Part shown: one piece after another, positions 1,809 to 27,253 of the stretch
Layout: each line of letters begins with the position of its first letter
Numbering within the stretch: the stretch's first letter is position 1
Source of the DNA: an uncultured Gammaproteobacteria bacterium
Lineage (GTDB): Bacteria > Patescibacteriota > Microgenomatia > UBA1406 > GWC2-37-13
Assembly (NCBI GenBank): GCA_964390735.1
Contig: CAYMIY010000004.1
Coordinates: 1-39,134 of the forward strand
Reading direction: 5' to 3'
Length of the DNA stretch: 39,134 bases
Notes under the pieces: model-generated
Seen by the model: only the letters and a program-made list of their open reading frames with translations
Told to the model about the DNA's origin: nothing
Database searches by the model: none
Program-made: the position numbers and the translations under genes

Positions 1809-4139
1809 ATGTCAGAGAAAACCTACCTAGAAAGCTTTGCTTATTATTTTAAGCGGTATAGATTTAAAGCTAATATATCCACACTTAGACAGTTTGCAGA
1901 TCTTATGGCTGCTGAGGGACTATATTATGACGTAAGTAACTACACTCGATGGCAGAATGGCGAAAGGATACCCAATGATAGAAAAATACTACTAGGTATG
2001 ATTCGCGTGTTTATAGATAAGAATGCTATAAGCACAGTTGAGGACTGTAATATATTTTTACATGCCGCGAAACAACTACCGCTAAAAAAAGGTGAAATAA
2101 GTAACTTGCAGGTATTTAAAGAAAGTATTAGAAATATGCTGCCAATAGTTTTAGACGATTTTGTAGGGAGAGAAGATTTTTTGAAAGATATAAATTGGAG
2201 ACTGATAACTTATAACAAAATTTGTATAACAGGAACAGCGGGAATTGGCAAGACTAGTTTTGTTATATATTTAGCGTATCTGCTTCAGAAAACGTTTCAG
2301 GAAGGTGTTTTTTATTTCCGAGTTGATATACAGTATATAGATACTATTTTGCTTGATATAGCGCGTTTTTATGGAGAAGATGTTAGCACAATAAAGGGAT
2401 TAAATGATAGGTTAATTTTCGTAATGAGTATCTTAAAAAGCAAAAAGACTGTTATTATACTTGATAATATTGACAATTATAAAAACATAGATAGTCTTAT
2501 AAAATCACTTGATGGATATTGTAAGTTTATACTTGTATCACAATACTCACCTCCCTTGTATCGTGATTCATATCATTTTAATTTATCTGGATTCAGTGAG
2601 ACAGAGACGTTACAATTGGCCGAGCACAAACTTGGAGAAGAGTATGTAAGGAATAATAGGGCTGAAATACTAGAAGTTGCTAAATTATCAGGATATTCAC
2701 CTCTTGCTCTTGATATTATGTTTAGTTATCTTGACACTCAGAGAATTAATGCAAAGGAACTTCTAGAAAAAATAGATAATATAATGCTGCCGATCACTTA
2801 CCAAAGCACATATGATAATAAAACTGTTGCGTCCTCAATAGAAATAAGCTTATCAACTCTAGAAAATAATGAAAAAAAAGTAGTATCTTCTTTATCTATG
2901 TTTGAAGGAACGGATATTAGTATAAGTGCTTTAAGGTCAATCCATAATATTCGTGAAGAAGAAATACGCAAAATTTTAGCAAGATTGATTGATTTATCAC
3001 TCATAGAAAGGTCAAAAACTGATAGGGTTAGAATTCATCCACTCGTAAGAACATACCTCAGACAAAAAGTAGTCTCTTACAAATGGTATCTACTATTAAC
3101 TAAGTATTACCTTCATTTGAATAATTTTGAGTACGAACTTGACAATATAAGAGGCGTAATGCAATATCTGAGTTTAAATAAACAATCAAACAGCTTAGTT
3201 AGTCTATGGAATAAAGTGGCGGTCTCATTATTAGAGGAAGGTAGATATGAAGATATAAAAACATATAAAGATATGTTGCAAAATATTGCTTATAGAGACA
3301 CTTTACCCACAATAATTTTAATACTTATAACGCTTATATACCTTCTTGCTGGATTTTTTGTATTAGTAAATCCAAATCATAGCAAGTTCTTTTCAATGAT
3401 TTACTGGCCAATAGCGAGTTACGGTCTGATCTATGGATATGTTATATACCGAAAGTGGAGAGGTTTTAGTAGTTTAATAGGTAGATCAATTTTTTTGTTT
3501 ATACTTGGGCTTACATGTCAGGTACTAGGACAGATATTATATTCTATCCTAACAATAATGGAATCGAACATTACTCCGTATCCATATCCGTCAATAGGCG
3601 ATATCGCATACTTTGGCAGTATCCCCATGTACATAATTGCAACAATCTTACTAGGACAAGCTATAGGTATTAAAATAACGTTAAGATCCTTGAGTAGTAA
3701 AATTCAATCTGTACTTATTCCAATATTTATATTAACCGCTTCATATACTGTATTTTTAAAAGATTATTATTTTGATTTCTCAAATATTCCAAAAATAATT
3801 TTGGATTTTGGTTATCCATTGGGCCAATCTATTTATTTATCTTTTATAATATTGATCTTTGTTTTATCACAACAATATCTGCTTCCTATATTAAGAAAAG
3901 GCATTTTCTTAATTATGATAGCATTAGCCATACAGTTTACAGCGGACTTTATTTTCTTGTATCGTTTTAGCCACAATATGTGGAATATCTCAGGAGATTT
4001 TGGTGACCTGATATATCTTTTAGCCTATGCTACCATGGGTTTTGCGCTTCTTCAATTTGATTACACTTACAAACTCAAGAAGCTTAATAATACCGATTTG
4101 TTCACGAAAGTGAAGAAATACATCTTTTCAACTTCCTAA
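1809..4139 (+). CDS. HTH / NB-ARC-type STAND NTPase fused to a C-terminal multi-pass membrane domain
   Basis: N-terminal XRE-like HTH segment (ISTLRQFADLMAAEG..DVSNYTRWQNGERIP). FVGREDFL...ITGTAGIGKTS is a Walker A, KTVIILDNID a Walker B, GYSPLALDIM is GLPLAL-like, and RVRIHPLVRTYL sits at the MHD-like position. The C-terminal ~270 aa are hydrophobic helices paralogous to ORF 661-1473. Confidence 0.75.
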   Translation: MSEKTYLESFAYYFKRYRFKANISTLRQFADLMAAEGLYYDVSNYTRWQNGERIPNDRKILLGMIRVFIDKNAISTVEDCNIFLHAAKQLPLKKGEISNLQVFKESIRNMLPIVLDDFVGREDFLKDINWRLITYNKICITGTAGIGKTSFVIYLAYLLQKTFQEGVFYFRVDIQYIDTILLDIARFYGEDVSTIKGLNDRLIFVMSILKSKKTVIILDNIDNYKNIDSLIKSLDGYCKFILVSQYSPPLYRDSYHFNLSGFSETETLQLAEHKLGEEYVRNNRAEILEVAKLSGYSPLALDIMFSYLDTQRINAKELLEKIDNIMLPITYQSTYDNKTVASSIEISLSTLENNEKKVVSSLSMFEGTDISISALRSIHNIREEEIRKILARLIDLSLIERSKTDRVRIHPLVRTYLRQKVVSYKWYLLLTKYYLHLNNFEYELDNIRGVMQYLSLNKQSNSLVSLWNKVAVSLLEEGRYEDIKTYKDMLQNIAYRDTLPTIILILITLIYLLAGFFVLVNPNHSKFFSMIYWPIASYGLIYGYVIYRKWRGFSSLIGRSIFLFILGLTCQVLGQILYSILTIMESNITPYPYPSIGDIAYFGSIPMYIIATILLGQAIGIKITLRSLSSKIQSVLIPIFILTASYTVFLKDYYFDFSNIPKIILDFGYPLGQSIYLSFIILIFVLSQQYLLPILRKGIFLIMIALAIQFTADFIFLYRFSHNMWNISGDFGDLIYLLAYATMGFALLQFDYTYKLKKLNNTDLFTKVKKYIFSTS

Positions 4140-4146
4140 ATTCATT

Positions 4147-4184
4147 TGTCAACTTTCTTGACACATTTGTCAATTTTATTGACA
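4147..4184. promoter_or_regulatory. Two tandem 17-bp palindromes TGTCAA-N5-TTGACA (candidate operator pair) upstream of the hydrolase gene
   Basis: TGTCAActttcTTGACA at 4147-4163 and TGTCAAttttaTTGACA at 4168-4184. Their centres are 21 bp apart. ATG of the next gene is at 4209. Confidence 0.5.
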
Positions 4185-4208
4185 GATATTCTGTTTTAAT
4201 AGATCCAT

Positions 4209-4742
4209 ATGCATATATTATTTTTGACAGGTAATAACCAACGCAACGTGGAGTGGGCTCAAACACTCAAAAGTAAATTTGAACAGGTGGGGTATACGGC
4301 TTCGCTTATATACTCAGATACGTGGAAGATGGATACGTATGGAGATTTGGATATGTCCTATGAGTTCGAGGAATCAGCCAGGATCCTGAAAGGAATAAAG
4401 GATTATATCATTTGTTCAATTTCAACAGGGGGATTAATAGCACTAAAAGGTATGTATGAAAAGATATATTCTCCACAAAAATGTATATGTATCGGTATAC
4501 CTATTGTGTGGGGGTATGACAGATTCTCACACGAAAATGCATGGCTGGAACATTTGCATGTTCCTTCACTCTTTATTCAAAAGAACGCAGACCCGATTAC
4601 ATCTTCAGGAATGCTCAAGCGAATTCTCAAAAAAATGAACGTGCAAAACAGTAGACTGCATGAACTGGTAGGGCATACGCATACCTATAACGAAACGGAC
4701 GAGATTTTTGAGGAGTGTGTGGAATTCTTAGCTTCAAAATAG
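4209..4742 (+). CDS. Small alpha/beta-hydrolase-fold-like protein (177 aa)
   Basis: ILFLTGNN start, nucleophile-elbow-like CSISTGG, and late acidic (NADPI) and His (GHTH) residues in the usual order. The last ~15 codons (NETDEIFEEC.EFL) are repeated downstream as fragments. Confidence 0.6.
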   Translation: MHILFLTGNNQRNVEWAQTLKSKFEQVGYTASLIYSDTWKMDTYGDLDMSYEFEESARILKGIKDYIICSISTGGLIALKGMYEKIYSPQKCICIGIPIVWGYDRFSHENAWLEHLHVPSLFIQKNADPITSSGMLKRILKKMNVQNSRLHELVGHTHTYNETDEIFEECVEFLASK

Positions 4743-4752
4743 TCCTATAGTA

Positions 4753-4781
4753 TTGACAATTTCTGCTTTTTTTTATATAAT
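4753..4781 (+). promoter_or_regulatory. Consensus sigma70-type promoter of the first GC-rich cassette
   Basis: TTGACA at 4753-4758, 17-nt spacer, TATAAT at 4776-4781. It is preceded by CCTATAGT at 4744-4751, a module shared with the cassettes at 8373 and 9792. Confidence 0.6.
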
Positions 4782-4805
4782 TAGAACATAAACTGCAGAC
4801 TAATA

Positions 4806-4828
4806 GGTGGGCAAAAACCACCTTTATT
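4806..4828 (+). terminator. Short hairpin plus T-run. Either the hydrolase gene terminator or a 5' attenuator of the cassette transcript.
   Basis: GGTGG gcaaaaa CCACC followed by TTTATT. It lies about 20 nt downstream of the predicted start from the 4776 -10 box. Confidence 0.4.
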
Positions 4829-4859
4829 CTGCTTTGTGCACTTTTATATAATGCGTCTT

Positions 4860-4993
4860 CTGTACATCCTGAGAATCAGGGGCTTCTCTAGCTTATGCGT
4901 ATATTCGTAAGCTACAGGAGCCCTTGATTGGGTAGCTAGGCGTATGTCTAGCTGGATTAGTATGCGGTTGTAAGGCCGCTAAAGGAGTGTCAG
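4860..4993 (+). promoter_or_regulatory. Structured 5' leader (several hairpins) upstream of the 4994 ORF
   Basis: CCTGA-gaa-TCAGG at 4868-4880. Nested GGGCT..AGCTTA-loop-TAAGCT..AGCCC. AGCTAG-gcgtatgt-CTAGCT. GCGG-ttgtaagg-CCGC immediately before SD AAGGAG. Two of the loops contain GCGTAT. Confidence 0.3.
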
Positions 4994-5689
4994 ATGAAGA
5001 CCTACGACGTCAATGGTCGCGAAGTCACCGCCGGGATCAAAGTCGCGATGGAACCCCAGCCCCATGTGGTGCTGGGTGACGGTGGGAACAAGAGGGCGAC
5101 CTGGGTGGCCATTGGCCAACGGGACGCCGGTACGATCATCGTGCGGCCGGATATTCCCTGTCCGAAGCAGGGAGGTAGCGATTTCACCGCTGACCCCGCA
5201 ACCTGCGCAGCGGAGCATAGGTGCGATCAGTGTGGGGAAATGTATGGCCCATGGGAGTCAACCACAAAGCTATACAACTATCGCTACCACCCGAATGCTG
5301 GCACAGTGGCTGGCCCTGAGCAGATTCAGGATGCCGGCGTCATGCAGCTTGAGAGCGGGAAGATGCTGATCGTCGCCCCCCGGCAAGGTAACCGCATTCT
5401 GGTGCTCTGGCGCTTCGAGTCGGGCTACCGTGGCGGTGCCGAGATCACCGCTGGCGAAGGCGTCAAGGTCGTCGCTGCGGACAAAGCTTGGCATTCCGGC
5501 CGTGGCAACATGGGCGAGACCGCCGAGATGTTGGCCATCATGGAGCCAGGTCAGGAGCTCCGTGCCGAGCGGTCGGGACGCCACATTGAGGAGACGCATG
5601 CGCGTCTGCGATACGACGGAACGAACATCATCGTCGAGTACGGTGATGAAACGCTTTTCGCCGTTGAGGCACAGGGCCAGTACCTGTAG
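4994..5689 (+). CDS. GC-rich hypothetical protein (231 aa), possible Cys-cluster/zinc-ribbon-like element (PCP...C...CDQC)
   Basis: SD AAGGAG lies 7 nt upstream of the ATG. High third-position G+C. A hairpin terminator follows directly. The overlapping ORFs in other frames are expected from the GC-rich composition. Confidence 0.7.
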   Translation: MKTYDVNGREVTAGIKVAMEPQPHVVLGDGGNKRATWVAIGQRDAGTIIVRPDIPCPKQGGSDFTADPATCAAEHRCDQCGEMYGPWESTTKLYNYRYHPNAGTVAGPEQIQDAGVMQLESGKMLIVAPRQGNRILVLWRFESGYRGGAEITAGEGVKVVAADKAWHSGRGNMGETAEMLAIMEPGQELRAERSGRHIEETHARLRYDGTNIIVEYGDETLFAVEAQGQYL

Positions 5690-5713
5690 CACAGTTCACA
5701 GATTGTGCATTAT

Positions 5714-5768
5714 GACCAGGAACGAGTGCTTTTAGCTCTCGTTCCTGGTCCAACTACTTTATTTTTTT
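5714..5768 (+). terminator. Intrinsic terminator of the 4994-5689 cassette
   Basis: 13-bp stem GACCAGGAACGAG / CTCGTTCCTGGTC (5714-5726 / 5738-5750), followed by CAACTACTTTATTTTTTT. Confidence 0.7.
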
Positions 5769-5835
5769 ATACACACCTTCTTAATTATATTAATAACGAA
5801 ACGGACGAGATTTTTGAGGAGTGTATGGAGTTTCT
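5750..5835 (+). repeat. 86-bp direct repeat, copy 1 (identical to 7045-7130)
   Basis: CCAACTACTTTATTTTTTTATACACACCTTCTTAATTATATTAATAACGAAACGGACGAGATTTTTGAGGAGTGTATGGAGTTTCT read identically at both positions. The flanking bases differ: 5749 t vs 7044 c, and 5836 t vs 7131 g. Confidence 0.9.
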
Positions 5836-5845
5836 TAATGATTAG
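5768..5845 (+). pseudogene. Orphan 3'-end fragment of a hydrolase paralog (...NNETDEIFEECMEFLND*)
   Basis: A 32-nt core ATAACGAAACGGACGAGATTTTTGAGGAGTGT at 5793-5824 is identical to 4687-4718 of the intact gene. There is no upstream coding body. Confidence 0.75.
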
Positions 5846-5851
5846 TTGCGA

Positions 5852-6985
5852 CTAAGAAGCTAATTTCATTTCGTGGTCATTATTCACATCTCTTTCAGTT
5901 AAAAAAGCAGGTACACGACTGTCGATAAGCCATCGCTGATTTTCAGGAATGGTTGCCGTCCATTTCTGGTACATGTCTTTCATTCGTCCGGCAGTTTTTG
6001 GAAACTTATCTATAAACTCATCTATGTCAATTCGGTCTGAATTAACGTCTTCATCTGGGTAATATGAATTATCAGTTTCTATTTGATCAGTAAACTCTCC
6101 TACATCTTGCATAATGCCAGATACTAAATTGATGTTTAAATTTCTCCGATCCTCATTATAATCATACAAATCGTCTGAAAGTTGCCAGGCAAGCACAGTA
6201 TGAAGAAATGTTCGAGTTCTCATATGTGCAATTTGTTCACGTTTACCCGTAGAAACCGTATCAGGGGATACAGCAAAGATATTGGTGATAACATCAACAA
6301 ACGGTCCTACTGTACCGAAACGAAGTGCGTGAGCCTCGTCAAATGAGTAAGAGTAGCGCCCTTCAAAGCATTGTTGCATATATGTAGAGACATCTAGAAA
6401 GTTATCCATAAGCCAGGATATATGTCCGCATTCGGCTTCTGAATAAGAGTGGCTATGAACTAATATTTTTGTGAGTATATTCTTTAAGTCACTTACTGTA
6501 GCAGTTTTGTCTTCTTTGTATTTCAAAACAGGGATAGCTTCAACCACTTCAGGAGCAATATACATCAAGCCGCGCGATTCAAGTTGGCTTCTCTTTTCAT
6601 CAAAAACACTATCGGCTCGATTAAATGTATCTATAAACAGTAAGGTTGCCAAATGTTTAGCAGGATCTTTTGCATCCATATCTTGAAAGAATTTTTTTGT
6701 CATTTCGAACCAGGCGATCGAATTTGAACGTACGCCTTCTTTTAACCAGCCCGTAATAATTTCTTGCTGAGTAGTTGTCAACGAGTATTTTTCACCTAAC
6801 CGCTGAATTTCATCATTACCGGATATTCCTAGGAGCAGGCGGGCATTTATACCACCATATTCGCTTATCGCGGCATCTACTAATGCATTAGGATCCACGC
6901 TAAGTGGGTTTTTAGATTCATTATATTCAGCTATATATGCTCGTTGGTCAGAGTGACTTAATTCAGACATACTATTATTATACAC
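5852..6985 (-). CDS. Hypothetical acidic protein (377 aa from GTG 6985; 372 aa from ATG 6970), with a weak isoprenoid-synthase-like motif
   Basis: Long AT-rich ORF bracketed by the 86-bp repeats. AWQLSDDLYDYNEDRRN resembles the second Asp-rich motif of squalene/phytoene-synthase-type enzymes. On the minus strand TATAAT sits 6 nt before ATG 6970, so the mRNA may be leaderless. Confidence 0.7.
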   Translation of the reverse strand: MYNNSMSELSHSDQRAYIAEYNESKNPLSVDPNALVDAAISEYGGINARLLLGISGNDEIQRLGEKYSLTTTQQEIITGWLKEGVRSNSIAWFEMTKKFFQDMDAKDPAKHLATLLFIDTFNRADSVFDEKRSQLESRGLMYIAPEVVEAIPVLKYKEDKTATVSDLKNILTKILVHSHSYSEAECGHISWLMDNFLDVSTYMQQCFEGRYSYSFDEAHALRFGTVGPFVDVITNIFAVSPDTVSTGKREQIAHMRTRTFLHTVLAWQLSDDLYDYNEDRRNLNINLVSGIMQDVGEFTDQIETDNSYYPDEDVNSDRIDIDEFIDKFPKTAGRMKDMYQKWTATIPENQRWLIDSRVPAFLTERDVNNDHEMKLAS

Positions 6986-7044
6986 TCGTGTTTAAACAAA
7001 TTGATTTGTTAGTTTTTACTCCACACTACGGTAAAGTTCGGTGC

Positions 7045-7130
7045 CCAACTACTTTATTTTTTTATACACACCTTCTTAATTATATTAATAACGAAACGGA
7101 CGAGATTTTTGAGGAGTGTATGGAGTTTCT
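7045..7130 (+). repeat. 86-bp direct repeat, copy 2 (identical to 5750-5835)
   Basis: See copy 1. The offset between the copies is 1295 nt. Confidence 0.9.
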
Positions 7131-7155
7131 GGCTACAAATAAACCTATAGAATAA
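7063..7155 (+). pseudogene. Orphan 3'-end fragment of a hydrolase paralog (...YTHLLNYINNETDEIFEECMEFLATNKPIE*)
   Basis: This is the tail of listed ORF 6937-7155. It matches GHTHTYNETDEIFEECVEFLASK at the end of 4209-4742. The upstream part of that ORF is just the antisense of the 5852-6985 gene start region. Confidence 0.75.
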
Positions 7156-7170
7156 TTATCTATATAAATC

Positions 7171-7179
7171 TGGTATACT
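7171..7179 (+). promoter_or_regulatory. Extended -10 promoter (TGgTATACT) for 7214-7615
   Basis: TGGTATACT at 7171-7179. SD AGAGG lies upstream of ATG 7214. Confidence 0.45.
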
Positions 7180-7213
7180 ATTACTAGAAAAAGTAGATAA
7201 AAAGAGGTGTCCC

Positions 7214-7615
7214 ATGCCTAAAGTCAAGAAGCAAGCTGCACATGTTGTACCTTATGCCGAGGAACTTATGCAGTACAGTAAGATCGTAAGTGAATTACTA
7301 AATCTGTTCGGTCTCCAGCTTATTAAAAGGTTGGAACTTCAACGAGCCAGAGGAATACTTACTCTGAGCACAGAGCCTATAGATCCAAAGCGAGCTGAGT
7401 GGAACAAGCTTGCAGCAGCATGGCGGGCTGAAACAGCGGATGTTCTCAGGACAGCCAGAGATAAACAGAAGTCTTTCTGTGATCGACTAATGACCATCCG
7501 TGCGACTCTCGCTCCCTCTGCATATTCCGTGGTTACGAAACAGATCCAGAAAAATAACCGTCGCTATGCAAGGAGCGATTTGAAGCTTCGGCGGGCTAGG
7601 CTTGAGGATCTGTAA
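7214..7615 (+). CDS. Small helical/coiled-coil-like protein, family member 1 (133 aa)
   Basis: Shares AEWNKLAAAWR and the C-terminal LRRARLEDL with the ORFs at 7856 and 8900. Charged, heptad-like composition. Confidence 0.75.
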   Translation: MPKVKKQAAHVVPYAEELMQYSKIVSELLNLFGLQLIKRLELQRARGILTLSTEPIDPKRAEWNKLAAAWRAETADVLRTARDKQKSFCDRLMTIRATLAPSAYSVVTKQIQKNNRRYARSDLKLRRARLEDL

Positions 7616-7644
7616 TAGGAGCTGACAACTTTTTCCAAACTACA

Positions 7645-7675
7645 ACCAGTACTGGGCGACAAACTCAGTACTGGT
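7645..7675 (+). terminator. Hairpin after 7214-7615
   Basis: ACCAGTACTG ... CAGTACTGGT. The outer arms are homologous to the hairpin at 9302-9332. The downstream T-tract is weak. Confidence 0.5.
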
Positions 7676-7710
7676 AACATCTTTCTCAATTCCATAATAC
7701 GGATGCATAA

Positions 7711-7768
7711 AATAATAACGGACGATATTTTTGAGGAGTGGATAGAGGTTTTGAATGGTACTTTATGA
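7711..7768 (+). pseudogene. Most degraded hydrolase 3'-end fragment
   Basis: AATAATAACGGACGATATTTTTGAGGAGTGGATAGAGG aligns to the 4687-4725 core with a 5-nt deletion (frame-breaking) and several substitutions. Confidence 0.6.
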
Positions 7769-7774
7769 TATAAT
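7766..7774 (+). promoter_or_regulatory. Extended -10 promoter (TGaTATAAT) for 7856-8251
   Basis: TGATATAAT at 7766-7774. The leader contains the palindrome TGAACG-ca-CGTTCA. Confidence 0.45.
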
Positions 7775-7855
7775 ATATCACTTTGTGATAGATTGTTGGG
7801 AGGCTTGAACGCACGTTCATACGAACCTTACGTAATGTAGATAAGGAGAACGAAA

Positions 7856-8251
7856 GTGCAAAGAATGGACCAGGAAGCGATCAACCGCGAGCACAAGCTC
7901 GCGCGATATGTACGAATAGTAGAAAGGTTTGCGGAAGAGGTTGGCAAGCTAATTAAGCAGCAGGAAGCTCTCAAAAAGGAGCGCCGAAACATTGTGTCAG
8001 CGCGCACGCCAGACAAAGGAAAGATGGTCAACTGGAACGAGCGAGCTATCGCTTGGCGTAATCTCCAGTTTGGTGCTCTCAGAAAAATGAGAGCTAAGGA
8101 ACACGAGGTATTGACAGAACTTTCAGATATGCTTTCGCGACTTGAGGAAAACGAAAGAAGCGCATTCGAGAACAAAAAAAATCAGATCAAGCGAGCTTTC
8201 AAGAAAGAGTACCTGAGGCTCAGATCGCGGAATCTAGATGAGATTCAATAG
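7856..8251 (+). CDS. Small helical/coiled-coil-like protein, family member 2 (131 aa, GTG start)
   Basis: SD AGGAG lies 7 nt before GTG 7856. VNWNERAIAWR and the C-terminal LRLRSRNLDEIQ align with members 1 and 3. Confidence 0.75.
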   Translation: MQRMDQEAINREHKLARYVRIVERFAEEVGKLIKQQEALKKERRNIVSARTPDKGKMVNWNERAIAWRNLQFGALRKMRAKEHEVLTELSDMLSRLEENERSAFENKKNQIKRAFKKEYLRLRSRNLDEIQ

Positions 8252-8269
8252 ATTCCAGTCTGCACACAC

Positions 8270-8308
8270 ATTGGTGTCTGGTCTGGCTCCGCCAGACCAG
8301 ACACCAAT
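8270..8308 (+). terminator. Perfect 18-bp stem / 3-nt loop hairpin after 7856-8251
   Basis: ATTGGTGTCTGGTCTGGC tcc GCCAGACCAGACACCAAT, followed by ACTACTT rather than a clean T-run. Confidence 0.5.
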
Positions 8309-8381
8309 ACTACTTAAAATGACTCAAAACAATGAAATGATAATAGAGAATGCTAATTCATGATGAATAAGTCCTATAATA

Positions 8382-8410
8382 TTGAATTATAACATTGTAT
8401 TTGCTATACT
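8382..8410 (+). promoter_or_regulatory. Sigma70-type promoter of the second GC-rich cassette
   Basis: TTGAAT at 8382-8387, 17-nt spacer, TATACT at 8405-8410. CCTATAAT at 8373-8380 sits at the same 32-nt offset from the -10 box as in the 4744 module. Confidence 0.55.
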
Positions 8411-8419
8411 TTCTACATC

Positions 8420-8439
8420 TGGCCCTTATGCATGGGCCA
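8420..8439 (+). promoter_or_regulatory. Conserved 5'-UTR hairpin / inverted repeat TGGCCC-N8-GGGCCA
   Basis: Lies between the -10 box and the SD. A homologous element is at 9840-9859. Both are followed by (A)GGA(G/A)G..TCGACATG. Confidence 0.5.
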
Positions 8440-8456
8440 ATACACAAGGAGTCGAC

Positions 8457-8768
8457 ATGAAAATCCAGCTGATTGATGCAGAAGGCGTCCTGGTGCGTTC
8501 GGTGCTGGCGGCTATGCCCAATAGCCTCGATTCGGGGATGCGCGTCCAGATCACCGATGAGGTCTGGAGGCGCTCCGGGGAGGATATCCATCCTGATGCG
8601 CTCTTGTTCTCAATGATCGGCGATGCCTGGGCCCGGGTGGCCTGGGATGCCCTCACCCTCAAGTATGTCATTACTGTGGTGGGGAGGGACCTTGCCGCTG
8701 CTATGAACTGCTGGCGGGCGGCCCTTCTCCACGTGGGTGTGGAGGTTGCCCGGGTCGTCGCCTTGTAG
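8457..8768 (+). CDS. GC-rich hypothetical protein (103 aa), paralog of 9881-10198
   Basis: SD AAGGAG precedes ATG 8457; the listed ORF starts at TTG 8382, which lies inside the promoter. It aligns by eye with the 9881 product (MKIQLIDAEG / MTLHLVGKDG; RVQITDE / RLMITGT; ARVAWD...YVITVVGRDL.AA / ATLHWH...YFTVVSDNLTNA). Confidence 0.7.
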   Translation: MKIQLIDAEGVLVRSVLAAMPNSLDSGMRVQITDEVWRRSGEDIHPDALLFSMIGDAWARVAWDALTLKYVITVVGRDLAAAMNCWRAALLHVGVEVARVVAL

Positions 8769-8776
8769 CAGCACAG

Positions 8777-8815
8777 GGTTTGCGGGACGGAGTTTTCACT
8801 TTCGTCCCGCAAACC
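8777..8815 (+). terminator. GC-rich hairpin after 8457-8768
   Basis: GGTTTGCGGGACG ... CGTCCCGCAAACC. The arms are identical to those of the hairpin at 10208-10243. Confidence 0.55.
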
Positions 8816-8854
8816 TATAATCTTTCGCAATACGCATTATACCTACCTTCTATT

Positions 8855-8863
8855 TGATATAAT
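8855..8863 (+). promoter_or_regulatory. Extended -10 promoter (TGaTATAAT) for 8900-9292
   Basis: TGATATAAT at 8855-8863. SD AAGGAGG precedes ATG 8900. Confidence 0.45.
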
Positions 8864-8899
8864 ACCGTCAGGCAACAAAAACAAAAAGGAGGATGTCCA

Positions 8900-9292
8900 A
8901 TGGCTAAGTCAAAACTTCGCCCTGAACTCGCAAGTGCGATTGAGGCCTACAAAACGGTCGTCCTTGAGCAGAAAAAGAATCTGGACAGTGCTTTTAACAC
9001 ATTCGACCGTTTGAGGAAAAGGCGCAATGGGTTCATTCAAAAAAAGAACCAGGAAGAGGAAGTCCGGCAGAACTGGAACAAGAGCGCGGCAGAATGGCGC
9101 GTTACCAAAGAGCGAGTGTTGGCTGCAGCTCAGATGGCACATGGTCCGGCGCATGCTCGTATAACGGCAGTGTTGAATGGTCTGAACAATACAGAAGAGC
9201 ACTACAAATTTCAGCGGCAGTTTCATACGATAAATGGCTTTTTTACGGCTGCAGATAGAAAACTTCGGGAGGCTCAGCTCGAGGATCTGTAG
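8900..9292 (+). CDS. Small helical/coiled-coil-like protein, family member 3 (130 aa)
   Basis: QNWNKSAAEWR and the C-terminal KLREAQLEDL match member 1. Strong SD. Confidence 0.75.
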   Translation: MAKSKLRPELASAIEAYKTVVLEQKKNLDSAFNTFDRLRKRRNGFIQKKNQEEEVRQNWNKSAAEWRVTKERVLAAAQMAHGPAHARITAVLNGLNNTEEHYKFQRQFHTINGFFTAADRKLREAQLEDL

Positions 9293-9301
9293 CATTCATC
9301 A

Positions 9302-9332
9302 CACCAGTGCCGAGCAAAGCTCGGTACTGGTG
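9302..9332 (+). terminator. Hairpin after 8900-9292
   Basis: CACCAGTGCCGAGC aaa GCTCGGTACTGGTG. It overlaps the next promoter. Confidence 0.5.
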
Positions 9333-9339
9333 GTATAAT
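9331..9339 (+). promoter_or_regulatory. Extended -10 promoter (TGgTATAAT) for 9373-9738
   Basis: TGGTATAAT at 9331-9339. SD AAGGAGG precedes ATG 9373. Confidence 0.45.
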
Positions 9340-9372
9340 GGAGCAGGACAAGCAATCAATAAGGAGGATACG

Positions 9373-9738
9373 ATGGACGCTAGGATCAAAATCAAATTCA
9401 ACACGGTGATATTTCATCTAGAGGAGCTGGCGACAGATCTAAACCGTCTGAAATTGTTACTGCGCTACGTTACACCATTGAGGAGTAAACGCAAACGATC
9501 GAAGAAAGAGACCGATAAGCTGACAGGCTATTTGAGGTCAGCAGAAGGTACTCTCGAGGATGCTGAAAATCAGAAGAAGGATATAGATGAAGGTCTGAGA
9601 CTTATTGCTCAGCTCGTTCAGAAACATACCATTACTCTGAATAAACAAGATAAGGAAACTATCGCAAATGCGCGCACAACATGCGACACATTAATCGCAG
9701 ATTGCCGGGCGTTGTATAATAGAATTAGCAGCACATAG
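9373..9738 (+). CDS. Small helical hypothetical protein (121 aa), not obviously in the WN..A..WR family
   Basis: Start moved from listed 9307 to ATG 9373, because 9307-9332 is the preceding hairpin and AAGGAGG lies 5 nt before 9373. Charged, heptad-like sequence. Confidence 0.7.
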   Translation: MDARIKIKFNTVIFHLEELATDLNRLKLLLRYVTPLRSKRKRSKKETDKLTGYLRSAEGTLEDAENQKKDIDEGLRLIAQLVQKHTITLNKQDKETIANARTTCDTLIADCRALYNRISST

Positions 9739-9749
9739 ACTCACTATCA

Positions 9750-9776
9750 TCAGATCTGGGCTCAGCCCAGATCTGA
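9750..9776 (+). terminator. Perfect 12-bp stem / 3-nt loop hairpin after 9373-9738
   Basis: TCAGATCTGGGC tca GCCCAGATCTGA, followed by AACTACTTTTT. Confidence 0.55.
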
Positions 9777-9821
9777 AACTACTTTTTAAAACCTATAATA
9801 CTACACTTTTTTCCTATATTT

Positions 9822-9830
9822 TGATATAAT
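9822..9830 (+). promoter_or_regulatory. Extended -10 promoter (TGaTATAAT) of the third GC-rich cassette
   Basis: TGATATAAT at 9822-9830. CCTATAAT at 9792-9799 lies 33 nt upstream of the -10 hexamer. Confidence 0.5.
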
Positions 9831-9839
9831 TGCCAGATG

Positions 9840-9859
9840 TGGCCCACATGTAGAGGCCA
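9840..9859 (+). promoter_or_regulatory. Conserved 5'-UTR hairpin / inverted repeat TGGCC-N10-GGCCA
   Basis: Homologous in position and sequence to 8420-8439. Confidence 0.45.
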
Positions 9860-9880
9860 AGAACAGAGGAAGGTATCGAC

Positions 9881-10198
9881 ATGCCAATGACACTTCACTT
9901 GGTTGGTAAAGACGGGCGCAAAGCGGGTATGCCGCTCGATGCACTGCCCCAGGAACTGCCGCCGAATACGCGGCTGATGATCACCGGCACCCTCACAGAC
10001 GATGAGGGCTCGACTGACGGGCCCGATCACTTTCTGACCGCGTGCGGCAGCAATGGCTATGCCACGCTGCACTGGCATGATTGTGATTGCTATTTCACCG
10101 TCGTGTCGGACAACCTGACCAACGCGGCGGTGCTTCTGCAGGCCTGCTATAAGCTGGCTGGCGCGAACGTGGCGATGGTTTTGTCCTGCCAGATCTAG
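9881..10198 (+). CDS. GC-rich, Cys-containing hypothetical protein (105 aa), paralog of 8457-8768
   Basis: SD GGAAGG, then TCGAC ATG as in the 8457 cassette. High third-position G+C. Same terminator arms as the 8457 cassette. Confidence 0.7.
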   Translation: MPMTLHLVGKDGRKAGMPLDALPQELPPNTRLMITGTLTDDEGSTDGPDHFLTACGSNGYATLHWHDCDCYFTVVSDNLTNAAVLLQACYKLAGANVAMVLSCQI

Positions 10199-10207
10199 CT
10201 TTCCCTC

Positions 10208-10243
10208 GTTTGCGGGACGGAGCTTAGCTCACGTCCCGCAAAC
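10208..10243 (+). terminator. GC-rich hairpin after 9881-10198
   Basis: GTTTGCGGGACG ... CGTCCCGCAAAC, followed by TTATTCATT. Confidence 0.55.
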
Positions 10244-10275
10244 TTATTCATTCCTTAATTCTGGGATTAACCTGA

Positions 10276-10305
10276 TTGACTTTCTCCCTGTAGATCCGCT
10301 ATAAA
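10276..10305 (+). promoter_or_regulatory. Possible promoter of the histidine kinase gene
   Basis: TTGACT at 10276-10281, 18-nt spacer, TATAAA at 10300-10305. ATG 10312 would then be nearly leaderless. Confidence 0.3.
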
Positions 10306-10311
10306 TAATGT

Positions 10312-13116
10312 ATGAGTTCTTTCAGTAGCTATATTGTAATGGTGTCTTTTGTGATGACATCGATACTCTCGCTCATTGTCTATATTAACAATCCGAAATC
10401 GTGGACAAACAGACTTCTCTGTATGCTTGGCAGCATGCTGGCATACATCATTCTGTTCAATTATTTTGCAGTCACTGCAGAAACTGAAGTACAACGCGTA
10501 TTCTGGATACGATCCATCATGGCAATTACGTCGATTATACCAATCACCATGATTGTGCTGGCGCACACATTCCCGGAACGAGAAATAACTCTCAATAAAT
10601 ACTTCATTTTTTCAGGTATTTGTTTTTCACTTGCACTTGGCGTACTTTCTTATACTGAACAGATAATATCTCATTACACTCGAAGTGATCTTATCGCTCC
10701 GTTTATCCCTGGTTTATCTACCTTGTTGTATGGTATCTATTTTGCGACTTCCATGATATTAGCCATACTTATGTTATTTAAGAAGTATAAACATAGTGTT
10801 GGGATAGCACGTATGCAGATCAAATATTTCATCCTGGGTGTATTCCTGGTTTGGGGATTGATATTCGTTGCAAACATTATGTTTGTCGTTATACTTAAAA
10901 CCGTAGATTTTACGCTTTATGGACCTTCGATATCATTTATTCTTGTTGGACTTCTGACATATGCAATACTCAGACATCGATTTCTCGATGTCAGGATGGT
11001 TGCCATGAGATCGATCGTATATCTCATGGTAGGATTACTCCTAAGCATAGCATATGCGCTCAGCCTTTTTACTCTACGACTTTTTGTTTTCAATATACCA
11101 ATCAATCTATATAACCTGTTTACCTCTACGGTGCTTGCGTTAATTATGGCATATAGTTTTCATCCTCTGAGTAAGTTTTTTAAATCGCTTACTGATAAAT
11201 ACTTTTTTAAAAGTGGATATGATTCGAATAAACTGCTACGCATACTCGGAAGAATAATGTCATCAACCTATGTTCTTGCTGACTTAACGGATCTTATTTT
11301 GCATCAAATAATGCAGACGTTAAAAATATCATCCGGATATATCGTTCTTATTAAAGATGCAAAGATCACGTGGCATAAAGTGAACGGAGACAAGGAAGCG
11401 GATCTGAAAGATAATGAAATAGACTACCTTATCCAGGCAGCTCATATGAAAAAAACAGAAAACGTACTCATTTTCGAAGAAATGGAAGAAGAAAAAGAAA
11501 AAGAGATAATGAGAAAGTATCACGTCAGTATCGTTTTACCACTCATTGTAAAAAATGAAGTAATTGGAGGCATGCTTCTGGGGCCCAAAGAATCGGGTGA
11601 TATGTATTCAGTGGAAGACATTAACATTCTCAAAATCATAACGCCGGAGATTGCGATGGCCATTCAAAACTCCGAGTCATACGAAGAGATCAAAACATTT
11701 AACATGACTCTCGAAAACAAAATAGAACAGGCTACTGATGAGTTTAGACAGATCAATGAGGAAGTATATAAAAAAAATCTCGAACTCGCAGAGCGTAACA
11801 AAACACTCATGCTCTTGAGACAAATTGATGAAGTCGTACTGAGCTCAGTTACTGATACCAAGCAGATAGGACAGAAAGTAGTTGACCTCATAGCAGAAAC
11901 TGCTCATTTTAGATTTGTCATGATTTCAGTTATCGACAAAGAACATAAAAAAATAAACGATCTGGCGATTGCTGCGCAGAAAAATAATCTTCCTGCAACT
12001 CTTGTCGCGGGGAATATGAGTATTTCAATGTACGATGAATCAAATCTGATCGTCAAATCGATACGCCACAAAACAATCGAACGTACAACAAAAGGGAGTG
12101 AAATACTCGGAACAATACCCATACAAGAGCATATTAATGAATGGGTCGCATACCCCATGGTTGTTCGTGGCGAGGCAATGGGAGCGTTGGTGATCGGACT
12201 CGAGAAAGGTTATGCAGAGCTGAGTGAATATCAGAAGGATCTTATAGATCGGTTAGTAAGTGTTATAGGGATTTCACTTGATAACGCAGTCCTGTATCAG
12301 ACACTTCAGGATGCCAATGAGCGGCTCAAGCAGATTGATTACATGAAGGATGAATTCGTTTCAGTCGCATCACATGAACTGAGAACACCGATGACGGCAA
12401 TCAGATCCTACTTATGGCTTGCATTATCAGGAAAAGGTGGCGAACTCACCGAAAAGCAGAAATTCTATCTTGAAAGATCATATAACTCCACAACCCGTCT
12501 TATTAAGCTGGTAAACGACATGTTGAATGTATCTAGAATTGAGTCCGGACGTATGAGTTTTGAGATGCAAGAGGTAGACATGGCAAAACTGACTGATGAA
12601 GTGATCGGAGAAGTAAAGCCACGCGCTGATGAACTCGGGGTGATTCTCCGCGTCGAAAAAGCGTTATCTCAGTTACCCCATGTAGTAGCCGACCCTGACA
12701 AAATAAAGGAAGTAATGATTAATTTCATTGGTAATGCATTTAAATTTACGCCTAAAGAAGGAGAAATCGTTGTTCATTTCAAAATAGAAGGACAGGAACT
12801 TGTAACCACAGTAACAGATACGGGTGAAGGCATCGCAAACGATGATATAAGCAAACTATTCCAGAAATTCAGCCTCGTCAAAGGATCGTATCAGACTAAC
12901 CAGCAGGCATCACAGGGAACAGGCCTTGGCTTGTATATTTCAAAATCAATTATTACTGAACACCAAGGAAAGATCTGGGCTGCTTCACCCGGTCGGGGAA
13001 AAGGTGCGACATTTGGATTTACATTACCATTGTTTACTGAAAATATGCTTGCCATGATGAAAGAAGCCCACGGGGGAAGCGATAGTGGTCTGGGCATTAT
13101 TCACACGGAAATATAG
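10312..13116 (+). CDS. Sensor histidine kinase: N-terminal 7TM-type membrane domain, two GAF-like regions, HisKA and HATPase_c domains
   Basis: H-box FVSVASHELRTPMTAIRSY, N-box INFIGNAFKFTP, G1 VTDTGEGI, G2 GTGLGLYISKSI. The N-terminal ~300 aa are hydrophobic, with YINNPKSWTNRL as seen in 7TM kinase N-domains. No response regulator gene is in the window. Confidence 0.9.
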   Translation: MSSFSSYIVMVSFVMTSILSLIVYINNPKSWTNRLLCMLGSMLAYIILFNYFAVTAETEVQRVFWIRSIMAITSIIPITMIVLAHTFPEREITLNKYFIFSGICFSLALGVLSYTEQIISHYTRSDLIAPFIPGLSTLLYGIYFATSMILAILMLFKKYKHSVGIARMQIKYFILGVFLVWGLIFVANIMFVVILKTVDFTLYGPSISFILVGLLTYAILRHRFLDVRMVAMRSIVYLMVGLLLSIAYALSLFTLRLFVFNIPINLYNLFTSTVLALIMAYSFHPLSKFFKSLTDKYFFKSGYDSNKLLRILGRIMSSTYVLADLTDLILHQIMQTLKISSGYIVLIKDAKITWHKVNGDKEADLKDNEIDYLIQAAHMKKTENVLIFEEMEEEKEKEIMRKYHVSIVLPLIVKNEVIGGMLLGPKESGDMYSVEDINILKIITPEIAMAIQNSESYEEIKTFNMTLENKIEQATDEFRQINEEVYKKNLELAERNKTLMLLRQIDEVVLSSVTDTKQIGQKVVDLIAETAHFRFVMISVIDKEHKKINDLAIAAQKNNLPATLVAGNMSISMYDESNLIVKSIRHKTIERTTKGSEILGTIPIQEHINEWVAYPMVVRGEAMGALVIGLEKGYAELSEYQKDLIDRLVSVIGISLDNAVLYQTLQDANERLKQIDYMKDEFVSVASHELRTPMTAIRSYLWLALSGKGGELTEKQKFYLERSYNSTTRLIKLVNDMLNVSRIESGRMSFEMQEVDMAKLTDEVIGEVKPRADELGVILRVEKALSQLPHVVADPDKIKEVMINFIGNAFKFTPKEGEIVVHFKIEGQELVTTVTDTGEGIANDDISKLFQKFSLVKGSYQTNQQASQGTGLGLYISKSIITEHQGKIWAASPGRGKGATFGFTLPLFTENMLAMMKEAHGGSDSGLGIIHTEI

Positions 13117-13135
13117 ATTGGTATATACTGTAACT

Positions 13136-13960
13136 ATGTCATATAATCGGCGAAGTGGTTTTACCATGAGTGAAATACTGATCGTTATTTCGCTTATGAT
13201 TATCCTGCTTCTTGTCTCCATAGCTATTTTAAACCCGACAAAACAGATTGAGCGCGTATGGGATATTAAACGCAGACAGGAACTCTCGATACTTACACGA
13301 GTCATGGATGACTATTACAATGATCACCAGGCATATCCGACGAATAATGATATATGTTATGACACGCCGAAGTTTTCGCCCGAAACAAATAGCTGTTTCT
13401 GTCATATTTGCGGTATCGAAAGTTCACGTAATCCCTTCAAAAACTATTTACACAGTCTATACTGTGATCCACAGCATCCTACCAAAGAATATGTATACCA
13501 ATATGATTGCCGAGCAGGAGACGCACCACGATGGTACCGGGTATGTGCGGAACTTTCATGGCCGGACGTGAATTTAAAAGATGGTAATTTTAATTACGGT
13601 GTGGCGAGTCCGAACATCAGTCCAAATTATTGCTATTCAATACCGAAGGTAAATCCGGATACAGCACCCGCTGAAGAATTGCCAATGATTACACCGACTC
13701 CAACTGGCACATTCCATCCGTCTGCAACATCAACTCCTTCGCCTACGGGGACGTCGGGAGTCACGGGCACTCCAGTGCCTGGCACACCCACTCCTACGAG
13801 TGGCCCACCGCTATGTCAGAACGATCCTGCAGTAAAATACTGTATAAAGAATGGAATCTGTAATGCATGCGGAGATCAGTTCAACTGCCACGACTCACGC
13901 AGCTGCGATCAACCGCTTATCATGTATGCAGACTTTCAATGCAGAAACAGCTGTATATAA
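13136..13960 (+). CDS. Type IV pilin/pseudopilin-like protein with a Pro/Thr-rich linker and a Cys-rich C-terminus
   Basis: Prepilin-type leader and methylation motif RRSGFTMSEILIVISLMIILLLVSIAIL; G|FTxxE. Start set at ATG 13136 because the listed 13085 overlaps the kinase gene. Linker PTPTGTFHPSATSTPSPTGTSGVTGTPVPGTPTPT. Confidence 0.75.
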   Translation: MSYNRRSGFTMSEILIVISLMIILLLVSIAILNPTKQIERVWDIKRRQELSILTRVMDDYYNDHQAYPTNNDICYDTPKFSPETNSCFCHICGIESSRNPFKNYLHSLYCDPQHPTKEYVYQYDCRAGDAPRWYRVCAELSWPDVNLKDGNFNYGVASPNISPNYCYSIPKVNPDTAPAEELPMITPTPTGTFHPSATSTPSPTGTSGVTGTPVPGTPTPTSGPPLCQNDPAVKYCIKNGICNACGDQFNCHDSRSCDQPLIMYADFQCRNSCI

Positions 13961-26782: not shown

Positions 26783-27253
26783 TCATACGTTGCTAGAATT
26801 AATAATTTCGTAAAATTCGTTTACATCTGCGAGAATTTTCTTCTGCTCAGGACCCGAAAGAGATGAATTATGTAAATTTAGTTCGAAATCAGACATGATA
26901 TGTTCAACCGATATATGAGAGGCATGTATATCCTTTGCTGGATTTCGTGAAAGCCAGCCTTGCTGAATACATAAGGAGCAAAGTTTACGGAGTGTAGAGA
27001 AGCGTCGGTTAATGGTCTTCTCAGGTATGCCGGAAGCCTGCTGATACTCTTTGTATTCATGAAAGTTCACCTCATTCAATAATTCGTTTAACTCAAAGGA
27101 ATTTGCGATATTTTTCTTATAACTGGTGATCCATCCTGCATAATGCCTGTAGTCTGAGAGATAACTCGTCAAGGTAGAAGCAGAAATATTTTCCGCAAGT
27201 AGATAAGTTTTGAACGTAGCTTCGATATTATGAAAATTATATGTGTTACTCAT
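26783..27253 (-). CDS. Stand-alone integrase-SAM-like (core-binding) domain protein, no catalytic domain (156 aa)
   Basis: FKTYLLAENISASTLTSYLSDYRHYAGWI and TINRRFSTLRKLCSLCIQQGWLSRNPAKDI fit the N-terminal SAM-like domain of tyrosine recombinases. The protein ends with no R..HxxR..Y catalytic region. Confidence 0.65.
   Translation of the reverse strand: MSNTYNFHNIEATFKTYLLAENISASTLTSYLSDYRHYAGWITSYKKNIANSFELNELLNEVNFHEYKEYQQASGIPEKTINRRFSTLRKLCSLCIQQGWLSRNPAKDIHASHISVEHIMSDFELNLHNSSLSGPEQKKILADVNEFYEIINSSNV

Follow-up and report, generated by a model that had tools for sequence, protein, structure and literature searches.

A putative hypervariable cassette island with a proposed recombination site at the 3' end of a hydrolase gene

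Between the stop codon of a small hydrolase gene (4742) and the start of a sensor kinase gene (10312), contig CAYMIY010000004.1 (39,134 nucleotides, nt; this whole stretch is called the window below) holds eight open reading frames (ORFs), referred to here as GC1 (4994–5689), m377 (5852–6985, on the minus strand), hel1 (7214–7615), hel2 (7856–8251), GC2 (8457–8768), hel3 (8900–9292), hel4 (9373–9738) and GC3orf (9881–10198), all but m377 on the plus strand. The comparisons reported here incline us towards the reading that positions 4730–10296 are a hypervariable cassette island whose anchor would be a recombination site of about 45 nt at the end of the hydrolase gene. Copies of the hydrolase 3' end recur between the ORFs, they become less recognisable with distance from the hydrolase, and related strains depart from the window at these same repeats. 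An earlier annotation, made from the sequence alone (the first-pass annotation), had placed eight ORFs here, which the ORF list bears out, and had proposed a recombination hot spot, a proposal in agreement with the conserved flanks and the variable gene content and order seen in the related contigs L034, L035, L036, L019 and L008.

Copies of the hydrolase 3' end in the window and in related contigs

The left anchor of the island is the hydrolase gene (4209–4742, plus strand), which codes for a small alpha/beta-hydrolase of 177 amino acids (aa) with a weak match to Hydrolase_4 in Pfam. Its last ~45 nt (…AACGAAACGGACGAGATTTTTGAGGAGTGTRTGGARTTY…; 4687–4732) constitute the proposed site, and the first site copy (4687–4738), within the last ~14 hydrolase codons (…YNETDEIFEECVEF), is the one embedded in the intact gene. 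Copy 2 (5793–5844) and copy 3 (7088–7139) belong to the left (5741–5839) and right (7036–7133) members of a 95-nt direct repeat, 96% identical, which brackets m377, and copy 4 lies at 7710–7761. Copies 2, 3 and 4 are 79, 88 and 63% identical to copy 1, respectively, copies 1–3 have a 32-nt identical core in common, and all copies are in the same orientation (plus strand). In a scan with a site profile, copies 2–4 were recovered with E-values between 1e-10 and 1e-15 (copy 2, 1.7e-15; copy 4, 1.3e-10), and nothing else in the 39 kb scored below E = 1. The profile misses a fifth, very degenerate candidate (~8325–8385, plus strand), which reads NNEMIIENANS* and is followed by CCTATAATATTGA, a motif also found after the real hydrolase stop; this stretch is likely a nearly erased relic of the site. 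Identity to the site thus drops with distance from the hydrolase, from 100% through 79/88% and 63% to barely recognisable.

The site copies of the window, L008, L019, L034 and L035 begin at about one base (…ATAACG(AA)ACGGACG), and most remain similar up to approximately GAGTTTYT, where homology among the sibling hydrolase genes ends as well. These common 5' and 3' limits argue for a defined site rather than for random truncation of duplicated genes. The last four to five codons of the hydrolase and its stop vary with the cassette that follows: LASK* or LASI* stands before GC1, and LRDV*, LRMG* and LEDGK* stand before three different hel genes. Direct repeats of the hydrolase 3' end flank the insertions and the hydrolase itself is intact, as in integration at gene 3' ends; no tRNA or tmRNA target was found. 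Of the short sequences that the first-pass annotation had seen recurring at cassette boundaries, the hydrolase 3' ends held up as repeats, CCTATAAT turned out to belong to a shared promoter region, and AACTACTT joins the cassette hairpin to the site copy as a linker.

The comparison between strains drew on five sibling contigs (L008/L009, L019, L034, L035 and L036), most of them short. Homologues of the hydrolase formed just three clusters (93, 84 and 71% identity) among 5.8 billion proteins, all of which led to informative contigs, and no relative was present in GTDB genomes or in the JGI metagenome collection. The flanks of L034 match those of the window: its left side carries an LPG-synthase-like gene, a 276-aa ORF, a STAND ATPase and the hydrolase, and its right side begins with the kinase; the flanking proteins are 51–84% identical at the amino acid level, hydrolase and kinase 82–84% (hydrolase, 84%). 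Nucleotide homology between the two contigs ends inside the site (4729) and restarts at 10297, 15 nt 5' of the kinase start, where the right anchor begins (10297–13116, plus strand, including the 7TM-GAF-HisKA-HATPase sensor kinase at 10312–13116), and no nucleotide similarity was detected over the intervening 5.6 kb. The L034 island instead contains, in another order, three hel genes, one GC1-family gene, one member of the GC2/GC3 family (an uncalled ORF at L034 8016–8324) and, in addition, five orphan helical ORFs, and its proteins share 31–38% amino acid identity with their counterparts in the window (38% for that of GC3orf).

In both L034 and L035 a second site copy stands after the first cassette. 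In L035 (91% identical) the hel gene that follows the hydrolase is a different one, and after it come a hairpin, a site copy and a transposase-like ORF; the latter (L035 1326–1733) begins about 50 nt after the site copy, and its N-terminus reads like that of an IS30-type transposase. L036 and L019 contain the hydrolase, a hel gene designated X (directly following the hydrolase in L036), an ortholog of copy 4 and hel2; they have this one other cassette in place of the GC1–m377–hel1 series of the window, and homology begins at copy 4 (7706). L008 (88–89% identical) shares hydrolase, GC1 and m377 with the window, m377 being 88–89% identical at the nucleotide level in both L008 and L009, and leaves window homology inside copy 3 at 7115. 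The hydrolase-end repeat contains or borders three of the between-strain breakpoints. No empty hydrolase–kinase junction was seen among the five siblings.

Independent assemblies reproduced most of the junctions between AT-rich and GC-rich DNA, for which a chimera is thereby excluded, and a chimeric assembly is very unlikely. Four Logan assemblies from separate runs match 4689–5779 or 4719–5779, a stretch that spans the AT-rich promoter, GC1 and the GC1 hairpin; in two of the four the match is exact from end to end. This strain and its siblings are represented in SRR16481186, SRR16481187, SRR6410602, SRR4000971, SRR29476923, SRR8224500, ERZ27283041, ERZ27282915 and JGI 3300045396. A further Logan assembly covers 7101–9987 at 99.97%, and L008/L009 span the hydrolase, GC1, m377 and copy 3. 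The junction between GC3orf and the kinase (9987–10312) is the sole one without independent coverage, since exact-sequence look-ups of the hydrolase, the kinase and GC3orf returned no record. Short-read assemblies miss loci of this kind; those of Logan delivered the cassettes as contigs of ~1–3 kb that end in or beside the repeats.

Composition and expression signals of the cassettes

The window has an overall G+C content of ~40%; the island (4743–10250) reaches 46%, whereas the left flank has 31% and the right flank 40%. The G+C counts on which the first-pass annotation had based its compositional mosaic were exact (42/60 in 5401–5460 and 13/60 in 721–780), and its distinction of three strongly GC-rich ORFs holds: G+C at third codon positions (GC3) is 0.72 in GC1 (231 aa, overall GC 0.61), 0.75 in GC2 (103 aa) and 0.74 in GC3orf (105 aa), compared with 0.22–0.40 (about 0.3) in host genes elsewhere in the window. 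Intermediate values of 0.43–0.53 were found for the helical ORFs, namely hel1 (133 aa, with a WN..A..WR motif), hel2 (131 aa), hel3 (130 aa) and hel4 (121 aa); of these four, which the first-pass annotation had listed together, the first three are paralogs of one family, the hel family, and hel4 is an unrelated orphan. The opposite-strand ORF m377 does have a host-like composition (GC3 0.30), but at 377 aa it is not the short gene it had been taken for. The mosaic is real, and it sits in codon third positions, as expected for protein-coding DNA of another compositional regime.

A promoter (TGnTATAAT, TGnTATACT or TTGACA-17-TATAAT) precedes seven of the eight ORFs, and all plus-strand ORFs are preceded by good Shine-Dalgarno sequences. 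The extended −10 motif TGNTATAAT is present in four copies on the plus strand of the island (7766, 8855, 9331 and 9822) against ~0.26 expected (window-wide shuffle mean, scaled), each copy 40–90 nt 5' of the start of hel2, hel3, hel4 or GC3orf (TGATATAAT at 7766 and at 8855 for hel2 and hel3, TGGTATAAT at 9331 for hel4). TGnTATACT stands before hel1 and GC2, and the head of the GC1 cassette (4743–4993, plus strand) comprises a CCTATAGTATTGA motif, a perfect TTGACA-17-TATAAT promoter at 4753–4781 and a structured 5' leader (4853–4993). Directly 3' of stop codons there are seven hairpins with perfect or near-perfect stems (−18.8 to −34.2 kcal/mol), at 5714–5750 (GC1), 7645–7675 (hel1), 8270–8308 (hel2, an 18-bp perfect stem), 8776–8816 (GC2), 9302–9335 (hel3, overlapping the promoter of hel4), 9750–9776 (hel4) and 10208–10243 (GC3orf), and 16 of the 24 strongest 45-nt folds of the window are within the island. 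Scans with generic sigma-70 and terminator consensus sequences showed no enrichment over shuffles; the enrichment is particular to the extended −10 motif and the long perfect hairpins. The proposal that every gene has its own promoter, Shine-Dalgarno sequence and hairpin thus applies to most ORFs and not to m377, which lacks a hairpin of its own. It faces the 17-bp hairpin 3' of GC1 (−28.3 kcal/mol), which is probably a two-way terminator serving both genes. A TATAAT occurs 6 nt before the ATG at 6970, which is probably the true start of m377, and this gene is probably leaderless.

Hairpins of different hel cassettes and strains can be aligned, with a conserved outer CCAG…CTGG and ACTAxCTT linker, and as read from this alignment the stems vary on both arms with pairing kept; on this comparison the cassette hairpins are homologous across cassettes and strains. 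The hairpins of GC2 and GC3orf have identical 10-nt arms (TTGCGGGACG), although the proteins are just 25% identical, which points to gene conversion, a common donor or a sequence-specific role of the hairpin. Moreover, the GC-family cassettes have a promoter-region motif (CCTATARTATTGA) that the window and L034 share. Owing to such shared cassette-end sequences, both the heads (hydrolase tail codons and promoter) and the tails (hairpin, linker and site copy) of the cassettes are recognisable.

The GC1 5' leader (4853–4996, plus strand) folds into three stems (−64.5 kcal/mol, z = −6.2), the closing helix pairing with the Shine-Dalgarno and AUG region. All 12 substitutions between L008 and the window in this leader are in loops or preserve pairing, and it may be a cis-regulatory RNA. 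Rfam gave no match for the leader, no hit in the window at gathering thresholds and no credible match in the island at E < 1.

Proposed mechanism, rival explanations and comparison with known systems

In the mechanism that we propose for the site-anchored island, the moving unit would be one gene as a complete expression unit, made up of replacement codons and stop for the hydrolase, an extended −10 element, a Shine-Dalgarno sequence, the ORF, a hairpin, the ACTAxCTT linker and a site copy, in this order. A cassette would recombine at the site within the hydrolase gene, the end of that gene would be regenerated, and the earlier site copy would be displaced downstream, where, freed from selection, it would decay. 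Recombination between site copies, either intragenomic or with incoming DNA, would then delete, replace or reorder cassettes. The enzyme, encoded outside the window, would be an unlinked site-specific recombinase or else RecA, acting on the 32-nt cores after DNA uptake. The scheme follows what is described for tRNA-anchored islands and, in part, for integrons and rAID-1 arrays. Displacement and decay would account for the identity gradient, for relics with common limits, for hydrolase tails that are specific to the cassette, for the 95-nt repeat that brackets m377 and for the strain breakpoints; the repeats flanking m377 are as expected from a circle integrating there by one crossover. The anatomy, the repeats, their decay gradient and the strain breakpoints at the repeats are observed; we infer in which direction cassettes insert, what form the mobile intermediate takes and which kind of enzyme acts.

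Several points weigh against this reading. No recombinase gene is encoded in the window or in the 4.8-kb upstream flank of L034, and by eye the site lacks the dyad symmetry of Xer or integrase core sites. Site copies are not recognisable in the distal half of the island (8400–10250) or in most of the L034 island, so that they either have decayed fully there or the cassettes arrived or arose in another way. Neither a free or circular cassette nor, in IMG/VR, a viral site copy was found. In L008 the hydrolase–GC1–m377 segment has diverged about as much as the flanks, so that some cassettes must be stably inherited. Finally, the sample of siblings is small.

The strongest competitor, a possibility that we regard as less likely, dispenses with a dedicated site and sees the locus as a minimal-mobile-element interval with locally expanding paralogs, its content exchanged by transformation and homologous recombination in the hydrolase and kinase genes, and the relics left by unequal crossing-over or by tandem duplication of the hydrolase with a hel gene followed by deletion. 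It is favoured by the absence of a recombinase, by the ComEC and ComEA genes in the window, by the paralogy of hel1–3 and the frequency of hel genes after a site copy (higher than that of any other gene), and by 32-nt identical cores that suffice for RecA; the replacement of the whole interval between the window and L034 ends at the two conserved genes, and the minimal-mobile-element concept is established in Neisseria, as set out in PMC1797815, which cites Saunders and Snyder. Random deletion, however, would not leave independent relics with the same 5' and 3' limits; the relics also precede unrelated genes (m377 and GC1-type cassettes), the internal breakpoints at 7115 and 7706 lie in relics rather than in the flanking genes, and the last hydrolase codons vary with the cassette. 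If this explanation were true, the locus would be an ordinary flexible island of mainly descriptive interest.

An improbable alternative is a toxin–immunity array, in which the hydrolase would act as effector or toxin, with hel proteins as its cognate or orphan immunity proteins and the orphans keeping 3' stubs of the toxin gene, as orphan immunity arrays and rAID-1 clusters do. Stubs of the upstream gene do precede small, diverse, co-directional genes, hel diversifies fast (paralogs are 22–33% identical), the hydrolase is lineage-restricted, and rAID-1 arrays likewise have skewed GC and repetitive intergenic sequences (bioRxiv 10.1101/471110). Yet the hydrolase has just 177 aa and no secretion or delivery domain according to Pfam, NCBIfam and PADLOC, the island proteins match no Pfam family, including the immunity families held there, the stubs represent one conserved C-terminal end rather than variable toxin domains, each gene has its own promoter instead of being operon-coupled to the toxin, and GC1, GC2/GC3 and m377 stand behind stubs as well. 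Even less credit is due to an assembly or binning chimera or a prophage or satellite remnant with moron-like genes, which is largely refuted: sharp AT/GC junctions and a promoter–gene–terminator anatomy with deviant GC, as in morons, would fit, but the junctions recur in assemblies made independently from no fewer than five other runs, no phage family was matched, IMG/VR contained neither GC1 or hel relatives nor a site copy, and the lone weak phage match in tblastn failed in a profile comparison. The first-pass annotation had also excluded a prophage, in agreement with the lack of a significant PHROG match and of viral contig relatives.

The same annotation held that the layout fits no known class. 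This went too far, because island growth at gene 3' ends, rAID-1, minimal mobile elements and morons each match in part; the locus resembles integrons, rAID-1, tycheposon-type growth, minimal mobile elements and morons, and fits none of them fully. In the tycheposon islands at Prochlorococcus tRNA genes, newer elements push older ones inward, leaving partial target copies (bioRxiv 10.1101/2020.12.28.424599). As in these islands, successive insertions would here be marked by direct repeats of the target 3' end, the newest insertion adjoining the intact gene; conserved genes border the island, whose content differs among close relatives; in contrast, the target is protein-coding and not a tRNA gene, and the units measure 0.6–1.3 kb with one gene each. 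Neither an integrase, an integrase remnant nor a replication gene was found in the islands of the window, L034, L035 and L008, and without a recombinase the locus fails as an integron, as a rAID-1 array and as an integrase-bearing island.

With integrons and with the rAID-1 arrays of Bacteroidales (bioRxiv 10.1101/471110) the locus shares small, diverse, co-directional genes with repeats between them, deviant GC and an apparent addition at one end beside a fixed platform; it differs in lacking an adjacent IntI-like or XerD-like recombinase, in the promoters carried by the cassettes and in a repeat that copies a coding 3' end. The statement that this is not an integron is borne out by the absence of a Phage_integrase catalytic domain among the scanned window proteins and by the cassettes' own promoters; a lone integrase N-terminal fragment occurs in the window, at 26783–27253 (minus strand), as a 156-aa ORF 16.5 kb away that has the tyrosine integrase N-terminal SAM-like domain only; the next gene, coding for a 2874-aa protein, leaves no space for a catalytic domain. 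On a reading of their sequence the hairpins are not attC sites, since they have 12–18 bp perfect or near-perfect stems, 3-nt loops and ends of the form GTTTGCG…CGCAAAC or CCAG…CTGG, versus imperfect hairpins with extrahelical bases and RYYYAAC…GTTRRRY (AAC…GTT) ends at attC R''/R', and promoters before seven of the eight ORFs set the units apart from the mostly promoterless cassettes of integrons, which depend on the platform promoter Pc. For rAID-1, the array, GC skew and repeats are present and the 5' XerD-like recombinase is absent, and no island protein has a match in Pfam, NCBIfam or PADLOC that would indicate homology to rAID-1 immunity families.

Minimal mobile elements of Neisseria, as described in PMC1797815, likewise consist of alternative whole-gene cassettes between conserved genes without a mobility gene, in a host with DNA-uptake genes (here ComEC and ComEA); the window compared with L034, L035, L036 and L019 answers to this description, and differs from it in having up to ten units, with internal repeats as extra exchange points. 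If RecA acted after DNA uptake, this version of the proposed mechanism would place the locus near a Neisseria-type minimal mobile element. The cassettes also resemble phage morons (PMC3594210) as independent promoter–gene–terminator units with GC unlike that of their neighbours, but they have no prophage context and are arrayed at a chromosomal site with site copies between them. Similar to the pdif/dif modules of Acinetobacter plasmids (PMC6449649, PMC10132070), they are small modules (one to a few genes) with short recombination sites and, as proposed here, a recombinase elsewhere, and in both cases sites attract insertion sequences, judging by the apparent insertion-sequence-type transposase ORF close to the L035 site copy; unlike pdif/dif, the site shows by eye no XerC/XerD-type dyad, and its copies are direct only and chromosomal.

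It is doubtful, though conceivable, that the locus is an integron-like capture platform of an undescribed type, with a site in hydrolase codons, cassettes that are expression units with a hairpin and a portable site, and an unlinked recombinase. Such a platform, if real, would feed a lineage-specific, fast-diversifying small-protein repertoire (hel, GC1 and GC2/GC3) in a host that is probably Patescibacteria/candidate phyla radiation (CPR)-like, a CPR/Paceibacterota-like placement suggested by gene content and by one GC1 homolog. Should the site model hold, bacteria with small genomes and a probably episymbiotic life would be able to gain and shuffle single genes without local integrases or transposases, an additional route of gene flux.

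Cassette proteins and neighbouring genes

Searches of Pfam, PHROGs, PADLOC and NCBIfam with all eight products yielded nothing usable (one PHROG match, insignificant), leaving the first-pass suggestion of defence or anti-defence functions without a supporting match in these databases, and sequence searches of the Protein Data Bank (PDB) with m377, a hel profile and a GC1 profile found no match. The cargo is, on sequence comparison, a locus-specific repertoire of the hel, GC1 and GC2/GC3 families plus orphans. It is not the random collection of foreign genes that had been supposed, as all three families recur at this locus in L034. The rapid turnover of the cargo suggests a putative role in biological conflict and makes hel, GC1 and GC2/GC3 candidates for interaction or conflict functions. 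These are three unannotated protein families, one of which, GC1, has a confident predicted structure lacking a PDB match.

The well-conserved GC1 family comprises at least 60 homolog clusters, mostly from short metagenomic contigs; the two clusters with names derive from Paceibacterota and Anaerolineae metagenome-assembled genomes, and in GTDB the family occurs in one species genome only. GC1 has a Cys-rich insert, with CxxC…CxxC in some family members. Its AlphaFold2 model (mean predicted local distance difference test score, pLDDT, 92.5) is all-beta and has no fold match in the PDB; the sole match in BFVD is an uncharacterised protein of the rudivirus SIRV11 (template modelling, TM, scores 0.42/0.51). 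In tblastn GC1 matched a Phapecoctavirus protein (E 6e-4), which a profile comparison (probability 1.4%) did not bear out and which we treat as chance. IMG/VR viral contigs contained no GC1 or hel relatives and no site copy, and a plasmid search gave no match. In the fetched GC1-family loci outside the lineage, GC1 does not co-occur with hel or GC2/GC3. The hel family has 14 clusters among 1.84 billion representatives and, as far as sequence searches indicate, is nearly restricted to this lineage; hel4 and the five distal ORFs of L034 were tried as members and proved to be orphans. The GC2/GC3 family was found at this locus only, among the fetched loci, and GC2 and GC3orf are weak paralogs; the model of GC3orf (pLDDT 70) had no match in the PDB.

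A foreign origin of the GC1 family is plausible. Within the cargo as a whole, the foreign origin proposed in the first-pass annotation is plausible for the GC-rich genes only. A different account of these foreign-looking genes, which bears on that claim alone and seems to us rather unlikely, is that resident genes rose in GC3 because the locus is hyper-recombining, through GC-biased gene conversion or through selection. It is nevertheless a live alternative, because GC enrichment relative to the host extends over the entire island and takes in the lineage-specific hel genes (GC3 0.43–0.53 against ~0.3), the L034 counterparts of GC1 and GC3orf have lower GC3 values (0.65 and 0.51), and GC1 keeps a GC3 of 0.72 after 12% nucleotide divergence with no drift to host composition. 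The sharp composition steps at cassette borders, with a host-like m377 in the middle, speak against it, as does the finding that GC1-family genes are GC-richer than their surroundings in nine of ten other loci on unrelated contigs, as expected of a travelling family. One AT-rich genome likewise has isolated GC-rich ORFs. The locus is a natural test of whether GC-biased gene conversion can yield genes that look foreign.

L012, an unrelated contig of ~32% GC, has two isolated GC-rich islets (0.52–0.56, at 9025–9414 and 10001–10630), made up of a GC1-family gene and of a 129-aa ORF unrelated to it and separated by long AT-rich spacers containing hairpins, with serine recombinase genes 6–8 kb from the islets, a mosaic resembling that of the window. 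On L024 an 8-kb GC-rich block (5548–13254), encoding a DEAD/ResIII helicase, a MoxR-type AAA+ ATPase and a VWA protein, lies 3' of a GC1-family gene, and AT-rich DNA makes up the left half of this contig. A module of GC1 with a neighbour of ~370–390 aa (in L005, L024 and, as m377, the window) was considered and discarded, as the neighbours are unrelated; the one in L005 has weak similarity to the C-terminal half of GC1.

Outside the island, ComEA is encoded at 36107–36700 (minus strand), and ComEC is represented by two overlapping minus-strand ORFs with a Competence domain (35319–36110) and a metallo-beta-lactamase domain (34429–35487), perhaps because the gene is split or carries a frameshift. 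Immediately 5' of the hydrolase, in a position kept in L034, a 776-aa protein (1809–4139, plus strand) has weak Pfam matches to AAA_22, NACHT and NB-ARC in its middle and, by eye, a helix-turn-helix-like N-terminus and a multi-pass hydrophobic C-terminal region. Two tandem operator-like dyads (TTGTCAAnTTTnTTGACA; 4142–4200, plus strand) stand just 5' of the hydrolase start and recur in siblings (L034 4717–4771 and L035 167–215), which suggests that the hydrolase may be under repressor control. Two tandem minus-strand ORFs of 488 aa each (30276–31742 and 31883–33349), near-identical in composition and probable paralogs, have no Pfam match; their neighbours are probable surface-protein genes with WxL-interacting, Big_1, Laminin_G_3 and DUF2341 domains.

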